Program-made: the position numbers and the translations under genes | Notes under the pieces: generated by a model | What the model was told of the DNA's origin: nothing | Database searches by the model: none | The model's input: the letters and a program-made list of their open reading frames with translations, nothing else | DNA from: Eledone cirrhosa | Lineage: Eukaryota | DNA: 64,000 nt | Direction of reading: 5' to 3' | Assembly: GCA_964016885.1 (NCBI GenBank) | Contig: OZ024740.1 | Coordinates: 312,666,001 to 312,730,000 of the forward strand | In this document: positions 743-60,265 of the stretch, piece by piece | Numbering within the stretch: position 1 is the first letter of the stretch | Layout of the letters: each line of letters starts with the position of its first letter

Positions 743-1148
743 AATATCACATGACACTGACATAAAAAGATTTTGTACATTAGATGTATCATCAATATTT
801 GTCATCTTTTAATGACTAAAGGAAGATGTTATACACAACAGATGTAAATCTGAGAATTAGTGTGAAATATTTTTTCTGAACTGAGATTAATAAAAACATT
901 ACTCTAATTCACTGTCTGGAATATCTACAAGGATTTTGTATTCTATTTATGCTTGGATTACAACAGACATTGTAGCATCTTTAAATAGTGATAAAGATCA
1001 CAGTTGATGGAAATATTGCAGAAGAAATATTTATTTGGAATAAAACAAACACAAATGGAAAGATATCCAAATATTGTGAGAAAATAAGAAAAATTGTGGA
1101 ATAAAGAACTATTTTGGAAACTAAAAGATTAATTTATCTCCTGAAAAA

Positions 1149-21775: not shown

Positions 21776-23617
21776 TTAGTTACATTGTCTCTCTCTTGTA
21801 TGAGTATGTTTGTGAGTATTCAATTGACTTTTATCAGAGAATGACTTACCACAGATAATACAAAGATATGGTTTCTCTCCAGTGTGAGTACGTTTATGAG
21901 TATTTAAGTTACTTCTTACAGAGAATGACTTACCACAGATATTACAGTGATATGGTTTCTCTCCTGTATGAGTACGTTTGTGAGTAATTAGTTGACACCC
22001 ATCAGAAAATGATTTACCACATACATCACAGTGGTACGGTTTCTCTCCTGTATGAGTACGTTTGTGAATATTTAAGTAACTTCTTACAGAGAATGATTTA
22101 CCACAGATAACACAAAGATATGGTTTCTCTCCTGTGTGAACATGTTTGTGAATATTTCTTTGACTTCCATCAGAGAATGATTTACCACAGATATCACAAT
22201 GATACGGTTTCTCTCCTGTATGAGTACGTTTATGAGTAGTTAAGTTACCTTTTACAGAGAATGATTTACCACAGATATCACAGTGATATGGTTTCTCTCC
22301 TGTATGAGTACGTTTGTGAATATTTAAGCTACCGCTACAAGAGAATGTTTTACCACAGATATCACAAAGACATGGTTTCTCTCCTGCGTGAGAACGCCAG
22401 TGACACACTAATTGACCACCTTCTGACAATGATTTATCACAGTGATATGGTTTCTCTCCTGTATGAATACGTTTGTGAGTATTTAAGTGAGATTTTATAG
22501 AGAATGATTTACCACAGATATCACAGTGATATGGTTTCTCTCCCGTATGAATACGTTTGTGAGTATTTAAGTGAGATTTTATAGAGAATGATTTACCACA
22601 GATATCACAGTGATATGGTTGCTCTCCCGTATGAATACGTTTGTGAGTATTTAAGTGAGATTTTATAGAGAATGATTTACCACAGATATCACAGTGATAT
22701 GGTTTCTCTCCCGTATGAATACGTTTGTGAGTATTTAAGTGAGATTTTATATAGAATGATTTACCACAGATATCACAGTGATATGGTTGCTCTCCCGTAT
22801 GAATACGTTTGTGAGTATTTAAGTGAGATTTAATAGAGAATGATTTACCACAGATATCACAGTGATATGGTTTCTCTCCCGTATGAATACGTTTGTGAGT
22901 ATTTAAGTGAGATTTTATAGAGAATGATTTACCACAGATATCACAGTGATATGGTTTCTCTCCCGTATGAATACGTTTGTGAGTAGTTAGATAGGTTTTT
23001 ATAGAGAATGATTTACCACAGATATCACAGTGATATGGTTTCTCTCCCGTATGAATACGTTTGTGAGTATTTAAGTGAGATTTTATAGAGAATGATTTAC
23101 CACAGATATCACAGTGATATGGTTTCTCTTCTGTATGAGTACATTTGTGACTAGTTAATTGTCTTGCTTCAGAGAATGATTTACCACAGATATTACAGTG
23201 ATATGGTTTTTCTCCTGTATGAGTACGTCTATGAGTATTTAAGTAACTTTTAACGGAGAATGATTTACCACAGATAACACAAAGATATGGTTTCTCTCCT
23301 GTGTGAATACGTTTATGAATATTTACTTGACTTCCATCAGAGACCGATTTACCACAGATATCACAGTGATACGGTTTCTCTCCTGTATGACTACGTTTGT
23401 GAATGTTTAAGCTACCTCTACGAGAGAATGATTTCCCACAGATATCACAGTGATATGGTTTTTCTCTTGTTTGAGTACATTCATGAGTAGTGAGGTCACA
23501 TTTTTGTGAGAATGGCTTACCACGTATATCACAATCATATGTTTTTCCTTTCTCTTTCTTCCTTTCAACAGAGTGTTTCTTCAATTTAACCTTATTCTCA
23601 CACAATTCAGTTTCCAT
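21776..23617 (-). CDS. ZNF-B: tandem C2H2 zinc-finger protein, 21 fingers (2 degenerate)
   Basis: ORF 21776-23740; its listed start is a TTG inside the VNTR, and the first in-frame ATG is at 23617 (METELCENK). Confidence 0.85.
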
Positions 23618-23695
23618 AATTCTAATTCTCACACCCCATTCCACAGATGTTTTTCTTGTCTTTCTATTTATTTTATTCCCAATATATATTTCTTC

Positions 23696-24708
23696 TGCAA
23701 TATTTCCTTCAACTCTGATCTTTACCAATATTTCCTTCAACTCTGATCTTTACCAATATTTCCTTCAACTCTGATCTTTACCAATATTTCCTTCAACTCT
23801 GATCTTTACCAATATTTCCTTCAACTCTGATCTTTACCAATATTTCCTTCAACTCTGATCTTTACCAATATTTCCTTCAACTCAGATCTTTACCAATATT
23901 TCCATCAACTCTGCTGATCTTTATCAATATTTCCATCAACTCTGCTGATCTTTATCAATATTTCCATCAACTCTGCTGATCTTTATCAATATTTCCATCA
24001 ACTCTGCTGATCTTTATCAATATTTCCATCAACTCTGCTGATCTTTATCAATATTTCCATCAACTCTGCTGATCTTTATCAATATTTCCATCAACTCTGC
24101 TGATCTTTATCAATATTTCCATCAACTCTGCTGATCTTTATCAATATTTCCATCAACTGTAATCTTTATCAATATTTCCATCAACTGTAATCTTTACCAA
24201 TATTTCCATCAACTGTAATCTTTACCAATATTTCCATCAACTGTAATCTTTATCAATATTTCCATCAACTGTAATCTTTACCAATATTTCCATCAACTGT
24301 AATCTTTACCAATATTTCCATCAACTGTAATCTTTATCAATATTTCCATCAACTGTAATCTTTACCAATATTTCCATCAACTGTAATCTTTATCAATATT
24401 TCCATCAACTGTAATCTTTATCAATATTTCCATCAACTGTAATCTTTATCAATATTTCCATCAACTGTAATCTTTACCAATATTTCCATCAACTGTAATC
24501 TTTATCAATATTTCCATCAACTGTAATCTTTATCAATATTTCCATCAACTGTAATCTTTACCAATATTTCCATCAACTGAAATCTTTATCAATATTTCCA
24601 TCAACTGAAATCTTTACCAATATTTCCATCAACTGTAATCTTTACCAATATTTCCATCAACTGTAATCGTCATCAATATTTCCATCAACTCTGATCTTTA
24701 TCAATATT
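23696..24708 (-). repeat. 28-bp (partly 31-bp) VNTR, about 35 copies, between the splice acceptor and the ZNF-B CDS
   Basis: Minus-strand unit gATGgaaatattgataaagattacagtt; sub-arrays have AAG in place of ATG or a 3-bp insertion. Confidence 0.9.
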
Positions 24709-24911
24709 TAAAGATGCTACAATATCTGTTGAAACCCAAGCTTAAATAGAATACAAAATCATCTTTTAGATATTCCAGAAGAAATATTTCAGAGTAATTC
24801 TCAGATTTATATAAACAGGGTTATATCTGTTGTGTATAACGTCTTCCTTTAGTCTTTAAAAGATGACAAATATTGATGATACATCTTTTCATGTCAATGT
24901 CATGTGATATT

Positions 24912-24930
24912 CTGAAATAATAAATAAATA
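24912..24930 (-). promoter_or_regulatory. Splice acceptor for the ZNF-B exon
   Basis: Minus strand tatttatttattatttcAG|aatatcacatg, matching the paralogs. Confidence 0.6.
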
Positions 24931-25189
24931 GAATAAAATATAGAGGATACTTATAATGTAGAGATTCAACAGTAACAATTACACCCCATTTCTATACTGA
25001 TAAACTGACGATATAAACCTTTATCTAGATATTTGAACTTCACTTTTAATTTATTAAAATTACATCATATAAATATCATCTGCTCTTATCTTCACACACT
25101 AGACCGCTCCTCTTCTGCCACTCCTATTATCCCCTTACCTACACACCCTGGTCCCTCTGTCACTGCTGTTTCTTTTACCTTTCCCTACA

Positions 25190-31741: not shown

Positions 31742-32564
31742 TTTTAAACTATATAAAATTCTTTTGTTTATGTTGATCTATTTAATTTACTTCCTAACAG
31801 TGACGAGTTCTGTAGAGTTTTGGTAATCATGTCTCGAGAACCTTCTCACTGATAAAGATACACATAAATTTACAGGGCGAAAACCCTCTGCCGTTCGGTG
31901 GAAATTGTTGTAATGGGGTATTTAGCTGGGCGATATCCAATTTTAGCGGCCTAAATGCCGCTTACTTGCTGTAGTTGCTGCTTACTTCAATGTATGAGGC
32001 TATTCCAACAAATTTACATTCCCCTTTTTTTAGCCGTTAAAAGAAATATAGATTTATTTATTGTTTGTTTTTTGCGATTTATTTGCCACTGGGGCATAGA
32101 TTTCTTTATTTGCCCCTTTTTTGTTTGTTTTTTTTTTTCGATTTATTAGCCTTTTGGGGTCACACACATCCCCGTAGAAAGTGTGCGACCTTTCTGCCAG
32201 GGAGCACAGAGAGAGGGGGGTGCTCCCTTCTCTTACCTGTACAAGCCGATATAGAGAGATGGCCCACTTACACGGGCCATTATTGCTACTTTCACCCATC
32301 TTTCATGGAATTGGCTGGGACTGAGTGCTTTTTTCTCCACCTTGATCCTTCTTTCGAAGTGGTATCGGAAGAAGAGGACCATTTGTTGGCCGGCGACATA
32401 TCCCCAGTTTCCTCGTTGCAAACGCATCTGGGACATTTCTTTTCCAAGGGGTTTCCGTCCCGGAATCCGTGTCTGTAGAGCCTTTCCCGAACGGGCAGGG
32501 CCCCTCGGTATAATAGTAAGTATTAGTGGTTGTAATAAAAATGCAATCAAAATGTAATAAATAC

Positions 32565-32700
32565 CTTCACTGATTTCTTTCCTTATATTATCAACAGAAG
32601 TTGGTATGTCACCTAAAGTTCGCTTTGTATGTTCCCGAATAGCAGTGAATTTTGATAAAACTGTTTCTAATTCCTTCTCCACAGTAAGACAAATATCCAT
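32565..32700 (-). pseudogene. RMND5: Captured RMND5/GID2-like first coding exon (left arm)
   Basis: MDICLTVEKELETVLSKFTAIREHTKRTLGDI..IRKEISE then GAAG|GTATTT; resembles the RMND5A N-terminus as recalled (MDQCVTVERELEKVLHKF..). Confidence 0.65.
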
Positions 32701-32874
32701 GTGTAGTTGAAGAGGATAAGTATGAAAGAACAGTCATTTAAATTTACAGATGGACAGATGTGGTGTTTGGCAGGGTTTGAGATATATAGAAAAATAATTA
32801 TTTACAGAAAAAGAAAATAATAATAAAGAATTATTATAATTTTTTTTAAAGATTTATATCTTTTTGGACTACAC

Positions 32875-33010
32875 ATGGATATTTGTCTTACTGTGGAGAA
32901 GGAATTAGAAACAGTTTTATCAAAATTCACTGCTATTCGGGAACATACAAAGCGAACTTTTGGTGACATACCAACTTCTGTTGATAATATAAGGAAAGAA
33001 ATCAGTGAAG
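32875..33010 (+). pseudogene. RMND5: Captured RMND5/GID2-like first coding exon (right arm)
   Basis: Same 136-nt ATG-to-donor segment, GT donor at 33011. Confidence 0.65.
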
Positions 33011-33064
33011 GTATTTATTACATTTTGATTGCATTTTTATTACAACCACTAATACTTACTATTA

Positions 33065-33530
33065 TACCGAGGGGCCCTGCCCGTTCGGGAAAGGCTCTAC
33101 AGACACGGATTCCGGGACGGAAACCCCTTGGAAAAGAAATGTCCCAGATGCGTTTGCAACGAGGAAACTGGGGATATGTCGCCGGCCAACAAATGGTCCT
33201 CTTCTTCCGATACCACTTCGAAAGAAGGATCAAGGTGGAGAAAAAGGCAGTCAGTCCCAACCAATTCCATGAAAGATGGGTGAAAGTAGCAATAATGGCC
33301 CGTGTAAGTGGGCCATCTCTCTAAATCGGCTTGTACAGGTAAGAGAAGGGAGCACCCCCCTCTCTCTGTGCTCCCTGGCAGAAAGGTCGCACACTTTCTA
33401 CGGGGGTGTGTGTGACCCCAAAAGGCTAATAAATCGCAAAAAAACAAACAAACAAAAAAGGGGCAAATAAAGAAATCTATGCCCCAGTGGCAAATAAATC
33501 GCAAAAAACAAACAATAAATAAATCTATAT
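33065..33530 (+). mobile_element. Probable L1/Tx1-like LINE 3' end inside the arm (mirror copy at about 32045-32510)
   Basis: GQQMVLFFRYHFERRIKVEKKAVSPNQFHERWVKVAIMARVSGPSL* followed by AATAAA and an A-rich tail; a similar tail lies at about 60381-60420 (minus). Confidence 0.4.
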
Positions 33531-33699
33531 TTCTTTTAACGGCTAAAAAAAGGGGAATGTAAATTTATTGGAATAGCCTCATACATTGAAGTAAGCAGCA
33601 ACTACAGCAAGTAAGCGGCATTTAGGCCGCTAAAATTGGATATCGCCTTTAGCTGCTACTGGAGTCATGCTGGTTGACATTAGTAAATGTTTTGTTGAA

Positions 33700-35240: not shown

Positions 35241-36062
35241 CAGACTGGTAGTTTCTACATTGGAACAAATAGTGCCAAAGAGTTTCTGGGAAGTCACCAC
35301 AAGATCTTAGAGGTGATTCCCTGCAACCTGTTCCTGATAAAATGTAATTCAATGGTATATACCCAGTTGAAAGCTAGCATAGTCTTGTTTTATTAACATT
35401 GCTCAGTGTCAGATATGTTTTAAATGTCAGATTTAGTTGAGTAAGTGGAGGATTGAAATTTGAGAGTTTATCTCTAGATTCTTCCTCAAATTTTTCCCAC
35501 CCTTCACTAATTATATTTTTGCTAAATGATTTCACTTGCAATAGATTTGGGACGTAGTCTATATGTATTATCTTCCTTTGAACTCCTTCCTTTGCTAATT
35601 CATCCGCTTTCCTATTTCCATTAATGCGTGTGTGGCCTGGTATCTACACATTCTAAAGTTGTGGATATAAAGACAAGATCATCAGTATTCAGGAGTTTCC
35701 ATGGAGGGAGAGATGGAAGAAAGAGCAATGACAGAGGGACCAGGGTATGTAAGTAAGAGGATAATAGGAGAGACAAGAGGAGCAGTATAGTGTCTGAAGA
35801 ACAGAGCAGATTATGTAATTTTAATAACAAATTAATAAGTGAAGTTTAAATGTCTAAGTAAAGGTTTATATCGACAGTTTATCAGTATAGAAATATTCTG
35901 TAATTTTTACTGTTGAATCTTTACATTTTAAGTATCCTCTATATCTGATACTGTTTCTTTATTATTTCAGAATATCACATGACATAATGTGGGAAAATAA
36001 GAAAAATTGTGGAATAAAGAACTATTTTCAAAACTTAAAAGATTAATTCGTCTCCTGAAAGA
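35241..36062 (+). repeat. Segmental duplicate of 1-1148 (intron end, acceptor, 5'UTR) with a deletion of about 320 bp
   Basis: Direct match starting cagactggtagtttctacattgg; after acatgaca it jumps to the tgtg(g/a)gaaaataag segment. Confidence 0.9.
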
Positions 36063-36864
<802 letters not shown>

Positions 36865-37045
36865 TAAAACATACTCATACAGATGAGAAGCCGCACAAAC
36901 ATACTCACACAGGAGAGAATCTATATCACAGATATCTGTGGTAATTTTTCTGAAGGTGGTAGCTTAGTTGTTCACAAATGCATTCACAGATGAAATAAGC
37001 CATATCATTTAACCTTGAATTACAAGACATTGTAGCATCTTTAAA

Positions 37046-37387
37046 TATTGATAAAGATCAGAGTTGATGGAAATATTGATAAAGATCAGAGTTGATGGAA
37101 ATATTGGCAAAGATTACAGTTGATGGAAATATTGGTAAAGATTACAGTTGATGGAAATATTGGTAAAGATTACAGTTGATGGAAATATTGGTAAAGATTA
37201 CAGTTGATGGAAATATTGGTAAAGATCAGAGTTGAAGGAAATATTGATAAAGATTACAGTTGATGGAAATATTGGTAAAGATTACAGTTGAAGGAAATAT
37301 TGGCAAAGATTACAGTTGATGGAAATATTGATAAAGATTACAGTTGATGGAAATATTGATAAAGATCAGAGTTGAAGGAAATATTGC
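37046..37387 (+). repeat. 28-bp VNTR, about 12 copies; the last ATG-bearing unit starts ZNF-D
   Basis: gatggaaat recurs at 37094, 37122 and 37150. Confidence 0.9.
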
Positions 37388-39182
37388 AGAAGAAATATAT
37401 ATTGGGAATAAAATAAATAGAAAGACAAGAAAAACATCTGTGGAATGGGGTGTGAGAATTAGAATTATGGAAACTGAAATGTGTGAGGATAAGGTTAAAT
37501 TGAAGAAACACTCTGAAGGTATTCATTGTCCTGTTGAAATAAAAAAAGAGAAAAGAAAAACATATGATTGTGATATACATGGTAAGCCATTCTCACAAAA
37601 ATGTGACCCCACTACTCATGAACATACTCATACAGGAGAAAAACCATATCACTGTGATAACTGTGGTAAATCATTCTCTCGAAGGGATAATCTATCTACT
37701 CACAAACGTACTCATACAGGAGAAAAACCATATCACTGTGATATATGTGGTAAATCATTCTCTATAAAAGGTAACTTAACAACTCACAAACGTACTCATA
37801 CAGGAGAGAAACCGTATCATTGTGATATCTGTGGTAAATCATTCTCTGATGGAAGTCAAAGAAATATTCACAAACATATTCACACAGGAGAGAAACCATA
37901 TCTTTGTGTTATCTGTGGTAAATCATTCTCTGTAAGAAGTTACTTAAATATTCACAAACGTACTCATACAGGAGAAAAACCATATAAATGTGATATCTGT
38001 GGTAAATCATTCTCTGAAGCCTGTCGATTAACTAGTCACAAACGTACTCATACAGGAGAGAAACCATATCACTGTGATATCTGTAGTAAAATATTTTCTC
38101 ATAGAAATAGTTTAAATATTCACAAACGTACTCATACAGGGGAGAAACCATATGAGTGTGACAGCTGTGGAAAATCATTCTCTGTAAAAAGTCATTTAAA
38201 TATTCACAAACATATTCACACTGGAGAGAAACCATATCTTTGTGTTATCTGTGGAAAATCATTCTCTGATAAAAGTCACTTAAATACTCACAAACGTACT
38301 CATACTGGGGAGAAGCCATATCACTGTGATATCTGTGCTAATTCATTCTCACAAAATGATCATTTAACCAGACACAAATATATTCATACTGTAAAGAAAG
38401 CATATCACTGTGATATCTGTGGAAAATCTTTCTTTGAAGTGAGTCGATTAACTAGTCACAAACGAACTCATACAGAAGAGAAACAATATCACTGTGATAT
38501 CTGTGGAAAATCATTCTTTCAAGCCACACGATTAATTAGTCACAAACATACTCATACAAAAAAGAAACCATACCACTGTGATATCTGTGGAAAATCATTT
38601 TACCTAGGCCTTAGCTTAAATAGACACAAACGTATTCATACAGCAGAGAAAACATATCACTGTGATATCTGTGATAAATCATTCCCTGACCGTAATGAAT
38701 TATATAACCACAAACGTATTCATATGGGAGAGAAGCCGCATCACTGTGATGTCTGTGGTAAATCATTCTCTGTAAGAGGTAACTTAAACACTCACAAACG
38801 TATTCACACTGGAGAGAAACCGTATCATTGTGATATCTGTGGTAAATCATTCTCTGTAAAAAGTCACTTAACTACTCACAACCGTACTCATACAGGTGAG
38901 AAACCATATCACTGTGATATCTGTGGTAAATCATTCTCTGTTGGCAGTCACTTAAAAACACACCAACGTATTCATACAGGAGAGAAACCATATCACTGTG
39001 ATATCTGTGGTAAATCATTCTCTGTTAGAGGTCACTTGAATAAACACAAACGTACTCATACTGGAGAGAAACCTTATCACTGTGATATCTGTGGTAACTC
39101 ATTCTCTGAAGGTTGTCAATTAGTTCGTCACAAACATACTCATATAGGGGAAAAACCACGTCGCTGTGATATCAGTGCTTAA
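37347..39182 (+). CDS. ZNF-D: tandem C2H2 zinc-finger protein, 19 fingers; paralog of ZNF-B
   Basis: Intact ORF from ATG 37347; N-terminus nearly identical to B. Confidence 0.85.
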
Positions 39183-43544: not shown

Positions 43545-46308
43545 TCCGGGGAACACACAAGCCAGGTAGATTATATCCTTACCAGAAGACGTGACAGAGT
43601 GTCTGTTGTAAACACTAAATCCCTCCCCCATGAAGAATGCACCTCCCAACATAGACTGATAATTAGCGACCTCATAGTCAGGACGAGACGTACTCGACAG
43701 CAGAAGAGGACTATCCTCAGGAGAAAAATATGGAAGCTAAAGGACCCCACAGCCAGAAATAAATTTCAAAGCATATTACTTGATGCTTTCGACAGTAAGG
43801 AAGAGCATTTAGAGTCGGACAATATAGAGGGACAGTGGGAATTTCTGAAAGCAAACCTGCTGATGGCGACAGACGAAGTCTGTGGCTGGAGCAGGCCTGT
43901 AGGCAGGAGGAGAGTAACATGGTGGTGGAACAGTAAGGTGGAGGGGACAATTAAGGCCAAAAAGCAGGCTTGGAAAGTATGGCGGGATGGGGGAAGTAGA
44001 GAAGACTATCAAGTGGCCAGGAGGGAAGCTAGGAGACAAGTGTACTTAGCAAGAAGGGAAGCAGAGGAAAGAAAGTTCAAGCATGTTCTACAACGCGAGG
44101 ACCAAAAACGTGAGGTGTTCAGGATTGCTAGGCAATGTGTCAAGGAAAACCGTGATATTGTCGGGGAGAAGTGTGTACTTAATGATGATGGCGTACTTGC
44201 CATCACCGACGCTGATAAGAAGGTAGCTTGGAAGTGCCACTATAAAAGGCTACTAAATGAGGAGAATAAATGGGAGAAAGACAGTCTCCCCCACATCGAC
44301 CCAATAGAGGGACCAGCAGTGTTAGTCGAGGGTAGTATAATAAGTAAGGCAATCAAGGATATGAAGACGGGTAAGGCGGCTGGGCCTTCGGAAATAGTTG
44401 CTGAGATGCTGAAGGCATCTGGCTCGGTGGGACACACCTTGGTCACCCGGATAGTTAACCAAGTCGTACAGAATGGCATAGCAGCATCATCGTTAACTGT
44501 TATAAGGGTAAAGGAGATGCCCTAGATAGGAGTAACTATAGAGGCATTAAACTAATCGACCAGGTCATGAAGGTCACGGAAAAAGTAATAGCGCAACTAA
44601 TCAGAGAGAGAATTGACCTAGATGAAATGCAGTTCGGGTTTGTGTCAGGCAAAAGTACCACAGACGCTCTTTTCATTGTACGTCAACTACAGGAGAAGTA
44701 CCTAGCTAAAGGTAAACCCCTCTACTTAGCTTTTGTCGACTTGGAGAAAGCCTTCGACAGAGTCCCCCGTTCCATTATCTGGTGGGCCCTTAGAAAACTA
44801 GGTGTCGACGAATGGCTTGTGAGAGCTATACAAGCCATGTATAAAGAAACAGTCAGCAAGGTTAGAATTAACAACGAATATAGTGAAGAGTTTAGCGTAA
44901 AAGTTGGCGTCCATCAGGGCTCTGTTCTCAGCCCCCTACTATTCAGGCTATAACAGAGGAGTTCAAGACCGGCTGCCCATGGGAACTCCTATACGCAGAC
45001 GACCTGACACTCATAGCTGAATCAATGGCCGAGCTAGAGAAGAAATTCCAAACATGGAAGCACAGCCTAGAATCAAAAGGCCTTAAAATTAACCTGGCTA
45101 AGACTAAAGTTCTAGTTTGTAGGAAAGAAAATAAGGCGGCGGTCCCTTCCGGGAAATGGCCATGCTCAGTGTGTAGGAAAGGCGTAGGTAGAAACTCCAT
45201 TTTATGTCCCAAATGCAAAGTATGGGTGCATAAAAGATGTAGTGGGATCACAGGTAAGCTAACTAAGAACTTAGATTTTACATGTGGCCGGTGCTCTGGT
45301 GCAATAAGTAGTGGCGAGTGCCCACAAAATACTAACTCTTTCAATTGCGCAGAGGGCTCTATAGAAATAGTGGACAGCTTCCGTTACCTGGGTGACAAAA
45401 TCAGCAGTGGGGGAGGGTGCTCCGAAAGTACAGTAGCTAGAGTCAGAACTGGATGGAAAAAGTTCAGAGAGCTTATACCACTATTAGCCGCTAAAGGGTT
45501 CTCCCTAAAAATGAAAGGCAGGTTGTATGATGCCTGCATACGAACAGCAATGTTGCATGGCAGTGAGACCTGGGCATTGTGCGCAGAGGATATACGCAGA
45601 CTAGAGAGGAACGAAGCTTGCATGCTCCGCTGGATGTGTAATAGTAATATACGTGAACGGCAAAGCATAAACGAACTAAGGAAAAAATTAGAAATAAGAG
45701 GGATCAGATGTTGTTTACTCGAGAGAAGGCTACGTTGGTACGGACACGTGATGCGCATGAAAGTCGACAGCTGTATAACAAAGTGCAGGGCAATAAAGAT
45801 AGACGGTAGCCACGGAATAGGCAGACCTAGAAAATCCTGGAACGAGCTGATAAACTCCGACCTCACACACTTACACCTCTCCAAGACAATGTCACTGGAC
45901 CGAGACCTTTGGCGGTACTCAGTAATAGAGAAGACCCGCCTTACCTAAATACATAGTAAAACCTACTACAGCCAGTAGGCATCTCTAACAAAATACACCC
46001 CGTCCCACCACCCACACCACCCCCTCCTATGTAAAGTTATGTTGGTGCCACAACATCCAGGCCGAAACAAATGAGATCGTGTAGGTGTCACGACAAAAAA
46101 ACACACAGTCCACGCTGTAATGTGGCCGTGTAGGCAACACGGTAAAAACCTCCCAGTCCCACACTGTAAATGTGGTTGGTGTTAGGAAGGGCATCCAGCT
46201 GTAGAAAACCTGCCAGACAGTCCTATGCGAGCAAGACAATCACTCTTGCTTCAAGTGGGAATACCCCCGTCCAAACCCATGCAAGCGTGGAACACGGACG
46301 ATAAACGT

Positions 46309-46339
<31 letters not shown>

Positions 46340-47275: not shown

Positions 47276-48112
<837 letters not shown>

Positions 48113-48422
48113 TTACAGAGAATGATTTACCACAGATATCACAGCGATATGGTTTCTCTCCTATATGACTGCGTTTGTATTTAGTTAATGATTTATCACA
48201 GATATCACAGTGATATGGCTTATCTTCTGCATGAATGCATTTGTGAACAACTAAGCCACTACGTCCAGAAAAAGATGTATCACAAATATCATAGTGATAT
48301 GGCTTCGCTCCTGTGTGAGTATGTTTGTGTTTAGTTAACTGATGTGGCTCAGAGAATGATTTACCACAAATATCACAGTAGTGTGGCTTCTCACCTGTAT
48401 GAGTACGATTGTGTTTTAATTA

Positions 48423-48596
<174 letters not shown>

Positions 48597-48950
48597 TTAT
48601 TGAGAAAATGATTTACCACAAATATCACAACAATATGGTTTCTCTCCTGTATGAACTCATTTGTGAACACCGCTAGAAAAGGGTTTATCACATTCATCAC
48701 ACTTACATGGCTTCTTCCCTGTATGAGTCCGCCTGTGTTCAGTTAAGTAAGAGTTTTTAGCGAATGACTTACTACAAATATCACAGTGATATGGTTTCTC
48801 TCCTATATGAATGCGTTTGTGAATAGTTAAGGCAGTTGCTTGAGAGAAAGAGCTATCACATTGATATGGCTTCTCTCCTGTATGAACACACTTGTGAACA
48901 GTTAAGTCCTTTTTTACAGAGAATGATTTACTAAAGATATCACAGTGTTA

Positions 48951-49100
<150 letters not shown>

Positions 49101-49201
49101 TCACAGTGATATGGCTTATCTCCTGTGTGAGTATATTTGTGTTTAGTTAACAAATATCTCTCAGAGAATGATTTACCTCAAATATTACAGTAGTGTGGCT
49201 T

Positions 49202-49604
49202 TATAACGGGTTTTAGGGTCAATTCTTAATATACATAATAGAGATCAGAAGGCATTTAGAACATTGACTAAATCCATTATCGATGTTGTAACTCTATTTA
49301 TTAGTCGTACATGTTGAACGGATACATTAGGTACAGGTCGTATCTACATGTGTAGGATGTAGCTTGGTCCGCTTCATTGCAAGATGGAGATGTTGTTAGC
49401 AGCGATGAGTGTAGCCTGGTCTTGTCGATAAGAGAGGTGCGTGTAGACTAATGACTCTCTTGGTCACCTCCGCTCACACTGGTGACGTAGTTCTGGACAG
49501 TCGAATTAGTGCGCCGAAGGTTTTGATTGGCTCACACTTCAGCCAACTTACCTCCGTAACACCATTCCTCCGCAGAAGGAAAATACATTTTATTCACTGC
49601 TACA
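49202..49604 (-). repeat. 3' LTR (polypurine tract at 49605-49616)
   Basis: Direct repeat of 54547-54949 with two visible substitutions; AGCAGGGGGTGA adjoins on the minus strand. Confidence 0.95.
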
Positions 49605-49826
49605 TCACCCCCTGCTTAGGCTTACAGCCGACAGAGAAATAAGGGTAGCAGTTGAATGAAAGAAAAAGTACTATATAATAGTAAACACAATAAAATATAT
49701 CACTGATAAAGAAATGTTCATATTACAGGAAAGTCAGAAATAGTGTAATGTTCACCTTAGTTCATACATTTAATACAAATACAAGGGCGGAGCAAACTCC
49801 AAGAAGATTGCTGTAAATAACATAGT

Positions 49827-52800
49827 TCATATATAAAGAGTCTTGCAAAGCTTCTTGGGCCAATGTACTCGCCGACCGCTACGTGTGGTGGTGACATATG
49901 TAGGTGTAGGTGTGTGCGATGTTGTATGTGTATTGTGGCTTGGCTGATGCCAGGTGTATGTGGGGGGAAAATGGGGCTCTTGTGTGAGAGTGTCTGTATA
50001 GGCCCGTTTTACCCTGTCAATGGACACAGTCTCTTTTTTACCCCCAATGTCTAGGGTGAATAGCTTATCTGTGCGCTCAAGCACGCGATAGGGACCGGTA
50101 TAAGGTGGCATGAGAGGAGCTCTCACGGCGTCCTTTCGTAAAAAGACGTGGGTCCATGAAGCAATGTCTTTCGGGACCGAAGATTTGATTGTCTGTTGGC
50201 GAGGGTGCATAGGCGGAAGATTGCTGAAATATGATTGCAGTCTGCTCACATACAGAGCTGGGTCTGTTGCTGGTAGGTCCAATGGAGCTAACATCTGACC
50301 AGGCAGAGATATAGGCACTCCGTAAACCAACTCGGCGGGGGAGTAGCCTAGATCTTCCTTGATGGCTGCACGACAGCCCAGGAGGAAAATTGGTACATAT
50401 TCGCTCCACCGCTGCTGATCCGGATAAGTGCGCAGTGTGGCTTTCAATTGGCGGTGGAAGCGTTCAATCATTCCGTTAGAAGCTGGATGGTAGCTGGTCG
50501 TTCGAATGCGTTGCATTCCCAGGATCCTTGAAAGCTCTCGGAAAAGGTGTGACTCAAATTGTCCACCGCGGTCAGTGGTGATAGTGGCTGGAACTCCGTA
50601 ACGCGATATCCAACCCGATACTAGGGCTCGCGCTACAGATTCCACCGAAATGTCACTTAAAGGAATGGCTTCAGGCCAACGTGTGAAGCGATCTATGCAG
50701 GTCAGGAGGTATGTAAATCCTCGGCTGACCGGCCATGGTCCGACAAGATCTATATGGACATGGCTGAACCGAGCGTCTGGAGTGCTGAAAGTTCCAAGGG
50801 GTGCGCGGATGTGTTTGTGCACCTTTGACTTTTGGCAGGATAGGCAGGAACGTGTCCAGGCAGTGATGTCACGCCTCATATTAGGCCAGAAGAATCTAGC
50901 CGAAATGAGTTTCACTGTGGTCGATATTCCAGGGTGTGCCAGACCGTGCAAGGTGTCGAAAACTGCTCGACGATGAGTCACTGGCACTAGAGGGCGAGGT
51001 GCATCTGTCGAGGTGTCGCAGATAATCTGTGTGTCCGAAGTTGGCACAGGCAGATATGCAAATTTGCCAGTTGCAAATTCAGAAGACGAGAGGTCCAAAG
51101 TATCCAGAGGTGGTTGTTCTGTTGCCATTCGTTGGAGGTCGATTTCCGCTGGCGATGACAGGAAATTAATTGGGAGGCGAGACAGTGCATCTGCCGCCGC
51201 ATTCTGTTCACCAGAGATGTGTCGGATATCGCTGGTAAATTGCGAAACGAAGTCCAAGTGGCGAGTTTCGCGAGGTGAATATTTGTCCGGCTTAGAACGC
51301 AGTGCGAACGTAAGCGGACGGTGGTCAGTGTATATAACAAATTGGCGACCCTCCAGTGAATGCCGAAAGTGTTTCACTGCAAGGTACATAGCCAAGAGTT
51401 CACGGCCGAATGTGCTATACCGTGTTTCTGCAGGCTTCAGCTGTTTAGAAAAGTAGGCAAGAGGTTGTAACTGTTGTTGGTGATGTTGTTGCAGTACTGC
51501 ACCTACAGCTGTGCCTGATGCATCAACAACCAGTGAAAACTGGGCACCAGACACAGGATGTGCAAGCAGTGATGTCTCCGCAAGCTTCCGCTTCACTTCG
51601 TCGAAGGCTTTTAGCTGATTCGTGTCCAATGAAATGGAATCGTTCTTCTTTTTCCTGTTACGTAACAGGTCGGACAGAGGAGACAGGAGATCCGCACAGT
51701 GTGGGATAAAGCGCCTGTAATAGTTCAGTAGCCCAAGGAAATGTCGTAGTTGACGAAGTGAAGTGGGTGGTTGGAGGTCTTGTACCGCTTTCACTTTATC
51801 AGGTAGTGGCGAAATTCCTTCTGGGCTGATGACATGGCCCAAGAAGACAAGTGAGGAAGCACCGAAAGCACATTTTGCCGGATTAATTCTCACTTGGTAT
51901 TTTTGAAATCTCTCGAACAGGAGACGGAGGTGAGTGACATGTTCCTCAGGTGAGGCACTTGCCACAAGAATGTCGTCGATGTAGCTGTACACGAAGTCTA
52001 AATCGCGCACAACTTCATCCATAAATCGTTGGAACGTGCTGGCTGCGTTTCGTAAACCAAAAGGCATGGTCAAAAATTCAAACGCTCCAAATGGAGTTGT
52101 TACTGCAGTTTTAGGTATGTCTGCCGGATTCACCGGGATTTGGTGGTATGCTTTGACCAAATCCAATTTGGAGAATATGTTGCATCCATGCAGCGAAGAT
52201 GCAAAATCCTGTATGTGTGGTATCGGGTAGCGGTCGGGTACCGTCATTGCATTTAACCGGCAAAAGTCCCCAGTGGGACGCCAATCACCGGAACGCTTTG
52301 GTACCAAATGCAAGGGTGCGGCCCACGGGCTTGAGGATGGGCGAATGATCCCGAGCTGCAGCATGTGATTGAATTCAGCCTTTGCGGCCTTCAGTTTCTC
52401 AGCAGAGAGACGGCGAGGGCGCGAAAACACAGGAGCGCCGGATGTTTCAATGTGGTGCTTGGTGGAGTGAGTAGGCTCACTCATCACAAAATTCAAATTT
52501 GTTAATTCCGGGAAGGAATGCAAAAGTGATTGGTAAGGATCTTCTGTAGCAGCGATAAAGAAGACCGGGCTGACCGACGAGACAGTCGATCTGGTACCCG
52601 GCACAGACAGTTCTGTGTTGGCATCCAACAACCGGCATCTGCGCATATCCACTATCAAGTTATAGTCGTGCAGGAAATCTGAGCCTAGGATGGGGTAAGG
52701 CAGATCAGCAACAGTGAAGATCCACGTGAAATCTCTACGCAATTCCAGGTTCAAAGAACGAGAAATCTGACCGTACGTGGGGATCGGTGACTGGTTTACT

Positions 52801-52990
52801 GCTTGCAGAGAGACGGTTGAGAGTTGGGGCTTCTCTTTGAGAAGTTTTAGCGGCCAAATGCTACAAGCCGCGCCGGTGTCGATCAGACAACGTGCTTGCG
52901 ACTCAGTGTCTGTGATGAAAAACACACGGTTATTAGGGAGGGTCAGAGGAGACTGTGCCGTGCTCAGGTCTCCTGAAATCTGTTTCCCTG
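49827..52990 (-). CDS. pol: Pol polyprotein (protease, RT, RNase H, integrase), entered by -1 frameshift
   Basis: [52 protein letters not shown]. Confidence 0.95.
52946..52988 (-). promoter_or_regulatory. -1 ribosomal frameshift signal
   Basis: G GGA AAC in the gag frame, followed 7 nt later by the stem AGGAGAC..GTCTCCT. Confidence 0.75.
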
Positions 52991-53878
52991 GTCTGAAAAT
53001 GTACAAGGCTGATTACAGGAGCGTGCTGCTGCGCCAAAACGGCTGTGGTAGTAACACAAACCTGAACTGCTTGTGTGACGGCGTCGTGGCGAGGGTGAAC
53101 GGCTCTGGAAACGGCGTCTGGGCGAATGAGCCCTGTGAGTGCTTAGTTTTCTCACTTCCTTGGTTAGCTGCTCTATTGCTTGCAGCATTGCTGCATTTGC
53201 AAGTGACTGGTCGGTATAACTGGCAGCCGCTGGAGTGAAGGAAGCGACCGCAGTCGGCGGCTGGGATACATTGAAGGAGATAGGAGCGAACGGATTGACC
53301 GCAGCCGGTGGCTGAGGTGCCTGGAAGGAGGCAGGAGAGAACGGATTGACCGCAGCCGGTGGCTGAGGTGCCTGGAAGGGGGCAAATGAGGCTGGGTGTC
53401 CGATGACACTCATAACCCTGTCGGCCGAAGCCGCTAGCTGGTCGACAGGAGCAGCCTCCATCATGGGCGCTAAAATCGCCTGAATTCCGGGGGGGGGGGG
53501 TAGCCTTGAGACAAAAAGCTGTCTAAGGAGGGCACTGTCAGCTGGGGCATCTTCCGCCAGCTCTCTCATCCGACGCAGTAGTTGTGTGGGCATCCGATCA
53601 CCCAAATGTTCGTCATTGACGAGCGTCTGAAATTTTTTTTCTGCGGACAATGTGGTCCGCCGCAACACTTCGAGCTTCACGCTCTCATAGGAGGCCCCAG
53701 GGCGAGGATCGGTAATTAAGTCTTTGACGACCGACGTCAATGACACTGGAAAAGCGCTTAACAGGAGATTTAACTGTCTGTGGTCACTGGTGATGTTATT
53801 CGCTGTGAATTGTGCTTCTATCTGGGCGAACCAGACAGTGACGTCACCGGTAAACGGTGGCAATGAAGTGCTACCCAT
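52964..53878 (-). CDS. gag: Gag
   Basis: [53 protein letters not shown]; ATG at 53878. Confidence 0.9.
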
Positions 53879-54526
53879 TGTGTATACTGGTGTAAAAGCA
53901 AAGGGCAAAGAAAGGACAACTCTGCACTTGTCACCCAGACAAAAGTGAAAATTCCGGCCAAGAAAAAATATAATCCGAGTGAAGGACAGAAAAAGAAAAA
54001 TATATCAAAAACAATGTTGGAGGGAAAAACGTCAAGCTTTAAAAAAAAAATTATGATTTATCTTTGTCCTATTATTTTTTTTTTTGTGTACTTTTCAAAA
54101 TGGCGTTGCCTCCGTCGTTTTGGCGGGAAAACAGCTGAAGAAGACGGAAGTCGGCCATCTTGCTCTGACCGGCTATCAGCACCAACAGTTTTTTTTTTTT
54201 TTTTTATAGCGTCGCCCAATCAGAAATTGAGAGGGAAAAATAAGATTTTTGTATTAACGCATGTGTTCGGTGATGTTAGAAAGTGAAGGTGTGATGTGCA
54301 GATTTAGTAACAATAAGACAATATATCAAATACATATTAGGACTCACGCTAATCGCGTACATACCCCGAGAAAAGGCGAGTGGCTTTGTTTTTTCTTTTT
54401 TTTCTTTTTTTTTTTTTGGGGATGCGAAATGTTGATGTGTTCGTTGCAACGGAAAGATGTGGTTTCTTCTGTGTTGATGTCCTTAAACGTTCGGGTCACC
54501 ATTTATAATGTGATTTGTTGTATCGT

Positions 54527-54544
54527 ATCACGTCGGGGTCACCA
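54527..54544 (-). promoter_or_regulatory. Primer-binding site complementary to the tRNA-Trp 3' end
   Basis: TGGTGACCCCGACGTGAT, 2 nt inside the 5' LTR. Confidence 0.85.
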
Positions 54545-54546
54545 TT

Positions 54547-54949
54547 TATAATGGGTTTTAGGGTCAATTCTTAATATACATAATAGAGATCAGAAGGCAT
54601 TTAGAACATTGACTAAATCCATTATCGATGTTGTAACTCTATTTATTAGTCGTACATGTTGAACGGATACATTAGGTACAGGTCGTATCTACATGTGTAG
54701 GATGTAGCTTGGTCCGCTTCATTGCAAGATGGAGATGTTGTTAGCAGCGATGAGTGTAGCCTGGTCTTGTCGATAAGAGAGGTGCGTGTAGACTAATGAC
54801 TCTCTTGGTCACCTCCGCTCACACTGGTGACGTAGTTCTGGACAGTCGAATTAGTGCACCGAAGGTTTTGATTGGCTCACACTTCAGCCAACTTACCTCC
54901 GTAACACCATTCCTCCGCAGAAGGAAAATACATTTTATTCACTGCTACA
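54547..54949 (-). repeat. 5' LTR
   Basis: TGTAGCAG..TTATA on the minus strand. Confidence 0.95.
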
Positions 54950-56023: not shown

Positions 56024-57099
56024 TCATATTGTCCTAAGTCCCACTTACGACAGTATGATTTGCTACATATATGACACCCACATGGCTTCTCAGCATTATG
56101 AATAAGTTTGTGAATAGTTAAACTGGCTTTTTGAGAGAATGATCTACAACAGATATCACAGTCATATGAAGATTTGACTATTTTTTTGACATTTTTCAAG
56201 AGATTAAAATTAATCTTTTAAATTTCCCAAATAGTTCATTATTCCACAATTTTTCTTATTTTCTCACAATATTTGTATATTTTTCCATTTGTTGTTATTT
56301 TATTCCAAATATATATTCTTCTGCAATATTTCCATCAACTAATCTTTATCAATATTTCCATCAACTGTGATCTTTATCAATATTTAAAGATGCTACAATA
56401 TCTATTGTAACAAGCTTAAATAGAATACAAAATCATCTTATAGATATTCCAGAAGAAATATTTCCGAGTAATTCTCAGATTTATATAAACGGTTATATCT
56501 GTTGTGTATAACATCTTCCTTTAGTCTTTAAAAGATGACAAATATTGATGATCCATCTGATGTACAAAAATCTTTTCATGTCAATGTCATGTGATATTCT
56601 GAAATAATAAATAAATAGTATAAGATATAGAGGATACTTATAATGTAGAGAATCAACAGTAACAATTACACCCCATTTCTATACCGATAAATGGTAGATA
56701 TAAACCTTTACCTAGATATTTGAACTTCACTTTTAATTTATTAAAATTACATCATATAAATATCATCTGCTCTTATCTTCACACACTACACTGCTCCTCT
56801 TCTGCCACTCCTATTATCCCCTTACCTACACACCCTGGTTCCTCTGTCAATGCTGTTACTTCCACCTTTCCCTCCACGGAAACTCCTGTATACTGATGAT
56901 CTTGTCCTTATAGCTGAATACATAGGAAAGTTAGAAGCAAACCTCCAGACAGGGAAGAAAAATTTAGAATGAAATGCATAAAAATAAACTTAGCAAAGAC
57001 TATAGTCTTTGTTGTACACAAACATAGTTGTGGATTTGGTTTGTTGTCCAGTTTAAGACTACTACTTTGTCCTTGTGAACCTTTAATAGAATCCACTGT

Positions 57100-58660: not shown

Positions 58661-58744
58661 TGAATGTTAAAATAAGCAATACTTTATATATAAGAATATT
58701 TATGTTTAATCAAGAGCGACGAAATTTAATAGATAAATTACATA

Positions 58745-60265
58745 TCATCATCATCATCATCAACGTTTAACGTCCGTGTTCCACGCTTGCATGGGTTTGG
58801 ACGGGGGTAGTCCCACTTGAGGCAAGAGTGATTGTCTTGCTCGCATAGGACTGTCTGGCAGGTTTTCTACAGTTGGATGCCCTTCCTAACACCAACCACA
58901 TTTACAGTGTGGGTCTGGGAGGTTTTTACCGTGTTGCCTACATGGCCACATTACAGCATGGACTGTGTGTTTTTTTTGTCGTGACACCTACACGATCTCA
59001 TTTGTTTCGGCCTCGATGGCGCGGCACCAACATAACTTTACATAGAACGGGGTGGTGTGGATGGGGTGGGGGTGGTGGTGGTGGGACGGGGTGTATTTTG
59101 TTAGAGATGCCTACTGGCTGGAGTAGGTTTTACTATATATTTAGGTAAGGCGGGTCTTCTCTGTTACTGAGTACCGCCAAAGGTCTCAGTCCAGTGACAT
59201 TGTCTCGGAGAGGTGTAAGTGTGTGATGTCGGAGTTTATCAGCTCGTCCCAGGTTTTTCTAGGTCTGCCTATTCCGTGACTACCGTCTATCTTTATTGCC
59301 CTGCACTTTGTTATACAGCTATCGACTTTCATGCGCATCACGTGTCCATACCAACGTAGCCTTCTCTCGAGTAAACAACATCTGATCCCTCTTATCTCTA
59401 ATTTTTTCCTTAGTTCGTTTATGCTTTGCCGTTCATGTATATTACTGTTACACATCCAGCGGAGCATGCAAGCTTCGTTCCTCTCTAGTCTGCGTATATC
59501 CTCTGCACACAATGCCCAGGTCTCACTGCCATGCAGCATTGCTGTTCGTATGCAGGCATCGTACAACCTGCCTTTCATTTTTAGGGAGAACCCTTTAGCA
59601 GCTAATAGTGGTATAAGCTCTCTGAACTTTTTCCAACCAGTTCTGACTCTAGCTACAGTACTTTCAGAGCACCCTCCCCCACTGCTGATTTTGTCACCCA
59701 GGTAACGGAAGCTGTCCACTATTTCTATAGAACCCTCTGCGCAATTGAAAGAGCTAGTATTTTGTGGGCACTTGCTGCTACTTATTGCACCAGAACACCG
59801 GCCACATGTAAAATCTATGTTCTTAGTTAGCTTACCTGTGATCCCACTACATCTTTTATGCACCCATACTTTGCATTTAGGACATAAAATGGAGTTTCTA
59901 CCTACGCCTTTCCTACACACCGAGCACGACCATTTCCCAGAAGGGACCGCCGCCTTGTTTTCTTTCCTACAAACTAGTACTTTGGTCTTAGCCAGGTTAA
60001 TTTTAAGTCCTTTTGACTCTAGGCCGTGCTTCCATGTTTGGAATTTCTTCTCTAGCTCGGCCATTGATTCCGCTATGAGTGTCAGGTCGTCTGCGTATAG
60101 GAGTTCCCATGGGCAGCCTGTCTTGAACTCCTCTGTTATAGCCTGAAGGGCAATAATAAATAGTAGGGGGCTGAGAACAGAGCCCTGATGGACGCCAACT
60201 TTTACGCTAAACTCTTCACTATATTCGTTGTTAATTCTAACCTTGCTGACTGTTTCTTTATACAT
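58745..60265 (-). mobile_element. 5'-truncated RTE LINE, same family as 43545-46340
   Basis: ORF 59186-60274 is nearly identical to the other copy; (ATC)n tail at 58745-58762; inserted into a Helitron-like element. Confidence 0.92.

Follow-up and report, generated by a model that had tools for sequence, protein, structure and literature searches.

The window, meaning the whole 64-kb stretch of DNA that was analysed, contains five paralogous multi-finger C2H2 zinc-finger genes (A to E) interspersed with LINE and LTR elements. Matches to PF00096 and PF13465 were found in A, B, C and D. Paralog A begins at position 1149 on the plus strand, and its ORF ends at a premature stop (1893-1895) after 248 codons. 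Gene B is located on the minus strand (coding region 21776-23617), and its predicted product of 613 aa has 19 complete C2H2 fingers, as counted by pattern. Paralog C (35971-36758, plus strand) comprises an acceptor, a deleted leader of 92 nt that lacks the repeat unit described below, and an ORF of 231 codons (36063-36758). The coding region of gene D, taken from the start that it shares with B, lies on the plus strand at 37467-39182 and encodes 571 aa with 18 fingers, or 611 aa if counted from 37347. Paralog E, on the minus strand from about 56192, has a frameshift and is interrupted by an LTR element. Neither KRAB nor SCAN appeared among the 25 best Pfam families for gene B, and a homologue search with residues 41-200 of D returned generic zinc-finger proteins, with no cephalopod-named one among the best 120 of 7,919. 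The Rfam search, at gathering thresholds, gave no match in the window.

Several repeats lie between and within these genes. The LTR retroelement at 49200-54949 carries 405-bp terminal repeats that are 99.5% identical, together with long gag- and pol-like ORFs, and represents a recent insertion into paralog E, whose 3' half is apparently the finger remnant at 47954-49200. Two LINE-like reverse-transcriptase copies (44837-46327 and 58744-60265) are 94% identical and lie in opposite orientation. Between the divergent genes B and C there is a 791-bp inverted repeat (31929-33647, 98%), each arm of which includes some 46 codons that begin with ATG and precede a donor-like GT. The best PDB match of this stretch was the N-terminus of RMND5A, a weak one (E = 0.22). 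This repeat is possibly a captured exon within a fold-back element, with one arm toward each zinc-finger gene.

Genes B and D form an inverted pair. Their 3' flanks agree at 1843 of 1857 bases (~99%), and the spacer that separates array and start shows no difference (80 of 80). On this sequence comparison they are sister duplicates, which would stem from a recent duplication or conversion. A crude count over 32 distinct, non-independent fingers of B and D gave nonsynonymous/synonymous ratios of 0.39-0.5 for the framework and 2.4-3.0 for the contact positions. Because the framework is constrained and change is in excess at the contact positions, the B/D lineage appears to have been under protein-level selection. 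In collinear alignment the finger arrays (21776-23545 in B, 37554-39182 in D) are about 80% identical, against the ~99% of the flanks, and in gene B seven fingers have an identical recognition helix.

Upstream of the coding region of B, on the minus strand, lies a 28-bp minisatellite (23698-24709), for which TRF reported a period-28 array of 35.3 copies with 96% matches. It consists of 35 units plus 8 bp and is flanked by the 8-bp direct repeat AAATATTG, which is also found at both ends of the D and E arrays and, with one mismatch, 28 bp apart in A. Minisatellites are built of head-to-tail units, roughly 10-60 bp long, with variant units; here 13 unit variants were counted across B and D. Read toward the gene, all on the minus strand, the B array begins with 19 ATG-bearing units of 28 bp (24155-24686), whose 18-codon uORFs terminate on the TGATG two units on. 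These are followed by 8 identical ATG units of 31 bp (23907-24154), which have a 3-base insertion and uORFs of 19-20 codons. The last block (23698-23906) opens with the final ATG unit, where an internal TGA limits the uORF to 7 codons, and continues with 7 AAG units without a start codon. Of the ORFs that unit ATGs open, 26 out of 28 in B and 6 out of 9 in D terminate on TGATG. The chains of TGATG-overlapped uORFs in a 28-bp array described by the initial annotation were thus confirmed. Its further statement that TGATG is present in every unit was not, since 7/35 B units and 3/12 D units have AAG instead. The ORF of 18 codons that it gave is correct over the 28-bp units, but the quoted peptide is exact in only 3 of the 28 B ORFs, and others have 19-20 or 7 codons.

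The sister array of gene D (37043-37386, plus strand; 12.3 copies by TRF) has 12 units plus 8 bp, 9 units with ATG and 3 with AAG. The ATG at 37347, which is in frame with the main ORF, had been assigned to the last D unit; it sits in the penultimate one, the last unit being AAG. The array follows a truncated leader that abuts the decayed fingers of C (36998-37042, plus strand), and homology to the other leaders starts only near 37007, behind those fingers. In paralog A there is a single unit plus 8 bp (983-1018, plus strand), the mismatch being in the first 8-bp arm, and E has an array of 2.3 units by TRF, the second of which is 26 bp long (56324-56385, minus strand). The C leader measures 92 nt versus about 405 nt, and the unit is missing there because about 310 nt of leader have been deleted, not because copy number dropped to zero. 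The copy numbers first listed hold for B (35), D (12), E (~2.3, first given as about 2.5) and the lack of a unit in C, with the reservations that A has ~1.3 copies rather than 1.5 and that the case of C is one of leader deletion. C and D are joined through an apparent deletion into a single predicted exon (35971-39182) with a 231-codon ORF, an array and a 571/611-codon ORF, and a two-ORF transcript from this region is possible.

The B array is separated from the coding region by a spacer of 80 nt (23618-23697, minus strand), the same in B and D, which contains a 5-codon uORF (ATG at 23639) and one TGGGA. In both genes (23622-23683 on the minus strand, 37401-37462 on the plus strand) TGGGA stands 64 nt ahead of the main ATG and the stop of the 5-codon uORF a few bases before it, probably by chance. 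No stop interrupts the coding frame across the spacer, which also holds for 5% of shuffles, and the corresponding frame in A is open too.

Beyond the array, a predicted 3' splice acceptor of B (pyrimidine tract plus AG) occupies 24912-24931 on the minus strand, and the exon would start at 24911. Within the region 23560-25100 the site at 24912 is the single acceptor-like one above a simple threshold; between the array and the start the same scan gave no second one, and ahead of the array it gave no donor-like site. The acceptor motif occurs four times in the window (743, 24911, 35971 and 56598), before A, B, C and E, and none precedes D. The placing of the array between a conserved acceptor and the CDS is therefore right for B, where the predicted acceptor lies upstream of the array, but does not apply to D, which is without an acceptor of its own. 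The unique 5' part of the predicted B leader (24710-24911, minus strand) contains 4 upstream ATGs, and 191 of its 197 aligned bases are identical to E. The whole predicted leader of B has 1,294 nt and 34 uATGs, with upstream ATGs followed by in-frame stops ahead of the main ORF; the leaders of A and E, of about 405 nt, have 8 and 9 uATGs, respectively. The array probably lies within the leader exon of B, a position deduced from the acceptor site. Gene D would be reachable only from the acceptor of C, behind the 231-codon ORF of that paralog, or from an unrecognised start or acceptor.

Read contigs from four sequencing runs of unrecorded kind (one study; short contigs, at most two samples) were aligned with the acceptor side of B. 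In each large run, some 30 distinct contigs have a variant form of the acceptor site at 24912. Error-free contigs of 128 nt in runs X1 and X3 span the B acceptor, as DNA would. Run X4, much smaller and of unrecorded kind like the others, shows depth on both the unit and the exon side; its coverage is low at the acceptor and zero across 24985-25182. Two of its joints connect the unit with the upstream leader, and no long B-identical contig is listed for it. Spliced RNA from paralogs would give such a picture, but gaps in coverage are no proof, and the pattern is not counted as evidence of expression.

The start of B at 23617 aligns with 37467 in D. Paralogs A, C and E read GTG there, and their start is a Met farther downstream. 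The unit ATGs stand in a weak context with T at -3, the shared start in one with A at -3 and G at +4. It had been proposed that the proximal AAG units of B move the start to 23617. The 7 AAG units are present and 23617 is the first in-frame ATG, but there has been no shift, this position being homologous to 37467 in D. Ribosomes would reach 23617 and 37467 via leaky scanning past the weak unit ATGs, combined with ordinary downstream reinitiation. Unit duplication also gives rise to an ATG in the main frame, 120 nt ahead of the shared start; D has it, and in B it is silenced. From this ATG at 37347, D could also make a longer form with 40 additional residues. The suggestion that repeat variants alter the N-terminus holds in so far as a single base of the penultimate unit determines whether the extension can start; the start of B and D is otherwise shared. 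Protein searches with the N-termini, the 40-residue extension included, found no homologue. Comparison of the extension frame between A and B gave 5 nonsynonymous changes and 1 synonymous change over 17 codons (41.3 versus 9.7 sites), a total of only 6 changes. A coding function of this frame was rejected, as the 5:1 ratio, a weak one with n = 6, gives no sign of constraint.

In a toy scanning model the B array adds 1.1- to 1,300-fold repression over 15 parameter sets, values that depend wholly on the assumptions. If the array is in the mRNA, the added uATGs would lower output under such a model, the direction being clear. The idea of tuning by uORF load agrees with this lower output, but its extension to each zinc-finger gene fails, since only one sister pair is expanded. 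The last unit ORFs of B end about 260 nt before 23617, and no unit ORF terminates at 23617, 37347 or 37467. The unit that would feed the ATG at 37347 in D is AAG, and another uORF overlaps this ATG out of frame. The initial annotation had also invoked stop-restart reinitiation into the main ORF. Such a relay fails because the chains end short of the product start in both arrays; there is no stop/restart overlap with that start, and the unit has no TGGGA, the core (UGGGA) of TURBS elements (PMC5972666). In termination-reinitiation of the TURBS type, the upstream stop overlaps the restart codon of the product ORF or is at most about 20-30 nt away from it. The predicted fold of ten units is less stable than that of shuffles (-26.5 versus -35.9 +/- 3.4 kcal/mol), and with folding weaker than in shuffles a role of the unit as RNA structure or editing substrate was rejected.

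Paralog A has a single copy between short direct repeats, the configuration of a microhomology-mediated tandem duplication, or is alternatively a contraction. A 28-bp piece between 8-bp direct repeats would have been tandemised by such a duplication in an ATG-rich leader, and amplification to 35 and 12 units would likely have proceeded via slippage or unequal exchange. One expansion would predate the B/D duplication, with rapid turnover since. B and D have 35 versus 12 units and just 2 of the 13 unit variants in common, and the variants are grouped in blocks, as in ordinary minisatellite turnover. The copy number of the array thus changes fast between these paralogs. By eye, there is a weak resemblance between the 28-bp unit and the 84-bp finger (3 x 28).

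Run X1 has 264 contigs that match the 5' leader of B at a level of at least 85%, and only 23 of them reach at least 99%, which makes the B leader a member of a large family. Five contigs per run, in all four runs, exit the unit into sequence that by eye matches the single-copy 3' flank (25/29 bases to A), and low copy number therefore looks usual in this family. What had been presented as a series from 1.5 to 35 copies across paralogs is really one expanded sister pair, B (35) and D (12), since A has a premature stop, E is frameshifted and C has a deleted leader. With A, C and E broken or truncated, the window offers no dose series of five steps but a single lineage that has expanded and turns over fast.

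The chain of uORFs follows from arithmetic. In a unit of length 3n+1 with a single TGATG and no other in-frame stop, the ORF must end on the TGATG two units on. When tandemised, 3.5% of 40,670 28-mers from the window gave a TGATG/TAATG chain, as did 4.8% of 100,000 mononucleotide shuffles and 10% of 30,000 dinucleotide shuffles; with ATGA overlaps added, the frequencies rose to 10%, 11% and 29%, respectively. Some uORF array results from about 36% of the tandemised window 28-mers. The TGATG chain is only mildly unusual, because it is a single event chosen after the fact. Variant sites fall inside TGATG in 1 of 8 cases versus about 1.4 expected (5 of 28 positions), and the ATG-killing AAG variant has spread to the B and D units counted above. 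The motif is unprotected, and selection for its geometry does not hold up. There is 1 ATG per 35 nt in the array, 1 per 45-51 nt in unexpanded leaders and 1 per 56 nt in the intron; the array contributes length more than ATG density.

From these results we conclude, with a probability of roughly 60%, that the locus holds a fast-changing minisatellite in a predicted leader exon, and that its uORF chain is a by-product, likely unselected, which would lower the translation of B. Most microhomology-mediated duplications are reported to evolve near-neutrally, according to PMC13167724. Several points stand against a by-product. Long intact ORFs are found only in B and D, exactly the two paralogs with expanded arrays, in this single window, and the fingers of both bear the marks of protein-level selection given above. 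Upstream AUGs are described as generally purged from 5' UTRs (PMC7889888), and for this reason 34 uATGs in the leader of B are unexpected if B matters. The sole length variant in B (+3) preserves the geometry, and the AAG units of B are grouped adjoining the start, a cluster that might have arisen because clearing the proximal leader was selected for. The intact expanded pair, the purging of uAUGs, the start-adjoining AAG units, the +3 geometry and the open spacer, each a single event, jointly keep alive two other readings, one with the array outside the translated leader and one with the array as a selected regulator of translation.

The first of these is unlikely, but it deserves to be taken seriously. 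The array could be spliced out, or lie upstream of a transcription start within or after it, or B and D could be barely transcribed; the uORFs would then exist only on paper. This would square intact, constrained ORFs with 34 uATGs. It would also suit the position of D, without its own acceptor and behind the 231-codon ORF of C, and the AT-rich, TATA-like run that follows the array. It fits poorly, however, with the simple-threshold scan, which revealed neither a second acceptor-like site from array to start nor a donor-like site before the array, with the purine-rich spacer, and with the retention of the acceptor motif by four of the five paralogs and by numerous contigs.

We regard as somewhat less probable again a selected translational rheostat, in which the number of units and their ATG/AAG state would stay variable because they set the zinc-finger dose by uORF load and toggle the 40-residue extension. 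The sister copies do differ in the expected respects, with 28 versus 9 unit ATGs and a different penultimate unit, and the 7 proximal B units are without ATG. The toy model allows repression of anything from 1.1- to 1,300-fold by the B array under its 15 assumed parameter sets, and 18 codons is inside the reinitiation-permissive range quoted for mammals in PMC5972666, which is under 30 codons. Yet the window has one expanded lineage only, the ATG is unprotected, the extension has neither constraint nor homologue, and 8-9 uATGs are already present in unexpanded leaders. The same doubt attaches to the broader proposal that in an animal transcription-factor family a one-uORF-per-unit minisatellite would act as a fast-mutating dial on dose, and a base of the penultimate unit would switch on (D) or off (B) an N-terminus of 40 residues that arose de novo, so that fresh duplicates would diverge in dose and form ahead of any change in their promoters.

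An action at the DNA level, through binding sites or chromatin, that would alter transcription and not translation, as proposed for other VNTRs, is highly improbable here. It can be argued by analogy only, from a variant of the TYMS 28-bp repeat reported to alter USF-1 binding (cited in PMC3320636) and from the title of a study, cited in PMC10547255, on a ZNF558 network controlled by structural variation at ZNF558, but the window offers no support. Least credible is a relay in which ribosomes would hop from unit to unit at TGATG and be passed to the main ORF, TURBS-like or as in bacterial coupling, for despite the unit ORFs that end on TGATG (26/28 in B, 6/9 in D) and the UGAUG overlaps described in mouse GAD and human SLAMF1 (PMC5972666), neither array has a chain ending at the main or an in-frame start, the unit lacks UGGGA and folds, ten units together, less stably than shuffles, and, in the account of PMC10275272, short uORFs restart downstream of their stop and viral overlap restart needs a structured element.

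Provided that the array is part of the mRNA and is translated, B and D would amount to a natural experiment, two near-identical genes that differ by 28 versus 9 uATGs carried on repeats and by a single base that switches a start. The pair would then test how much uORF load is tolerated by a metazoan leader, and the retuning of newly duplicated transcription factors by repeat instability. If it is unexpressed or without effect, the array is a young minisatellite of the ordinary sort, in a gene cluster that is decaying.

In the open-access literature (subscription journals and supplements being outside the scope), no report was found of a minisatellite with one uORF per unit in a eukaryotic leader. 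Clustered C2H2 zinc-finger genes are described in cephalopods (PMC9068888, PMC12513265), and the tandem multi-finger cluster is a trait shared with the present locus; the terms UTR, exon, minisatellite and translation are absent from the main text of PMC12513265. With the minisatellites of the Haber and Louis model, as presented in PMC13167724, the array has in common a single-copy segment between short direct repeats and its later expansion, seen here as 1x, 2x, 12x and 35x in one window. It differs in that the unit holds TGATG and lies in the predicted leader exon of a tandem gene family. The last uORF of SLAMF1, embryonic GAD and the calicivirus TURBS share with it the five-base overlap and short upstream ORFs (PMC5972666, PMC10275272). 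According to the same sources, however, the overlaps of SLAMF1 and GAD include the main start and TURBS needs UGGGA and a fold, and neither is true of the 28-bp unit. The mycobacterial MIRU (PMC12548453) likewise has a repeat-borne short ORF with overlapping start and stop codons before a gene. Its ORFs are described as coupled, with a spacing of -4, to the gene that follows, and the hosts are bacteria, in which such coupling is a routine matter. Here the host is a eukaryote and the chain stops short of the main start, at which no repeat ORF of B or D ends.

The nearest named analogue is the 28-bp VNTR in the 5' UTR of human TYMS, as described in PMC3320636. The two share the unit length, a 5'-UTR position near the start (a predicted one here) and variant units, a likeness that implies no sequence relationship. 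For TYMS, too, an effect on translation has been proposed and disputed (PMC3320636), and the description of that repeat includes no mechanism with one uORF per unit. People differ in the number of TYMS repeats, which is mostly 2-3 and reaches 9 at most, whereas the variation described here is between paralogs.
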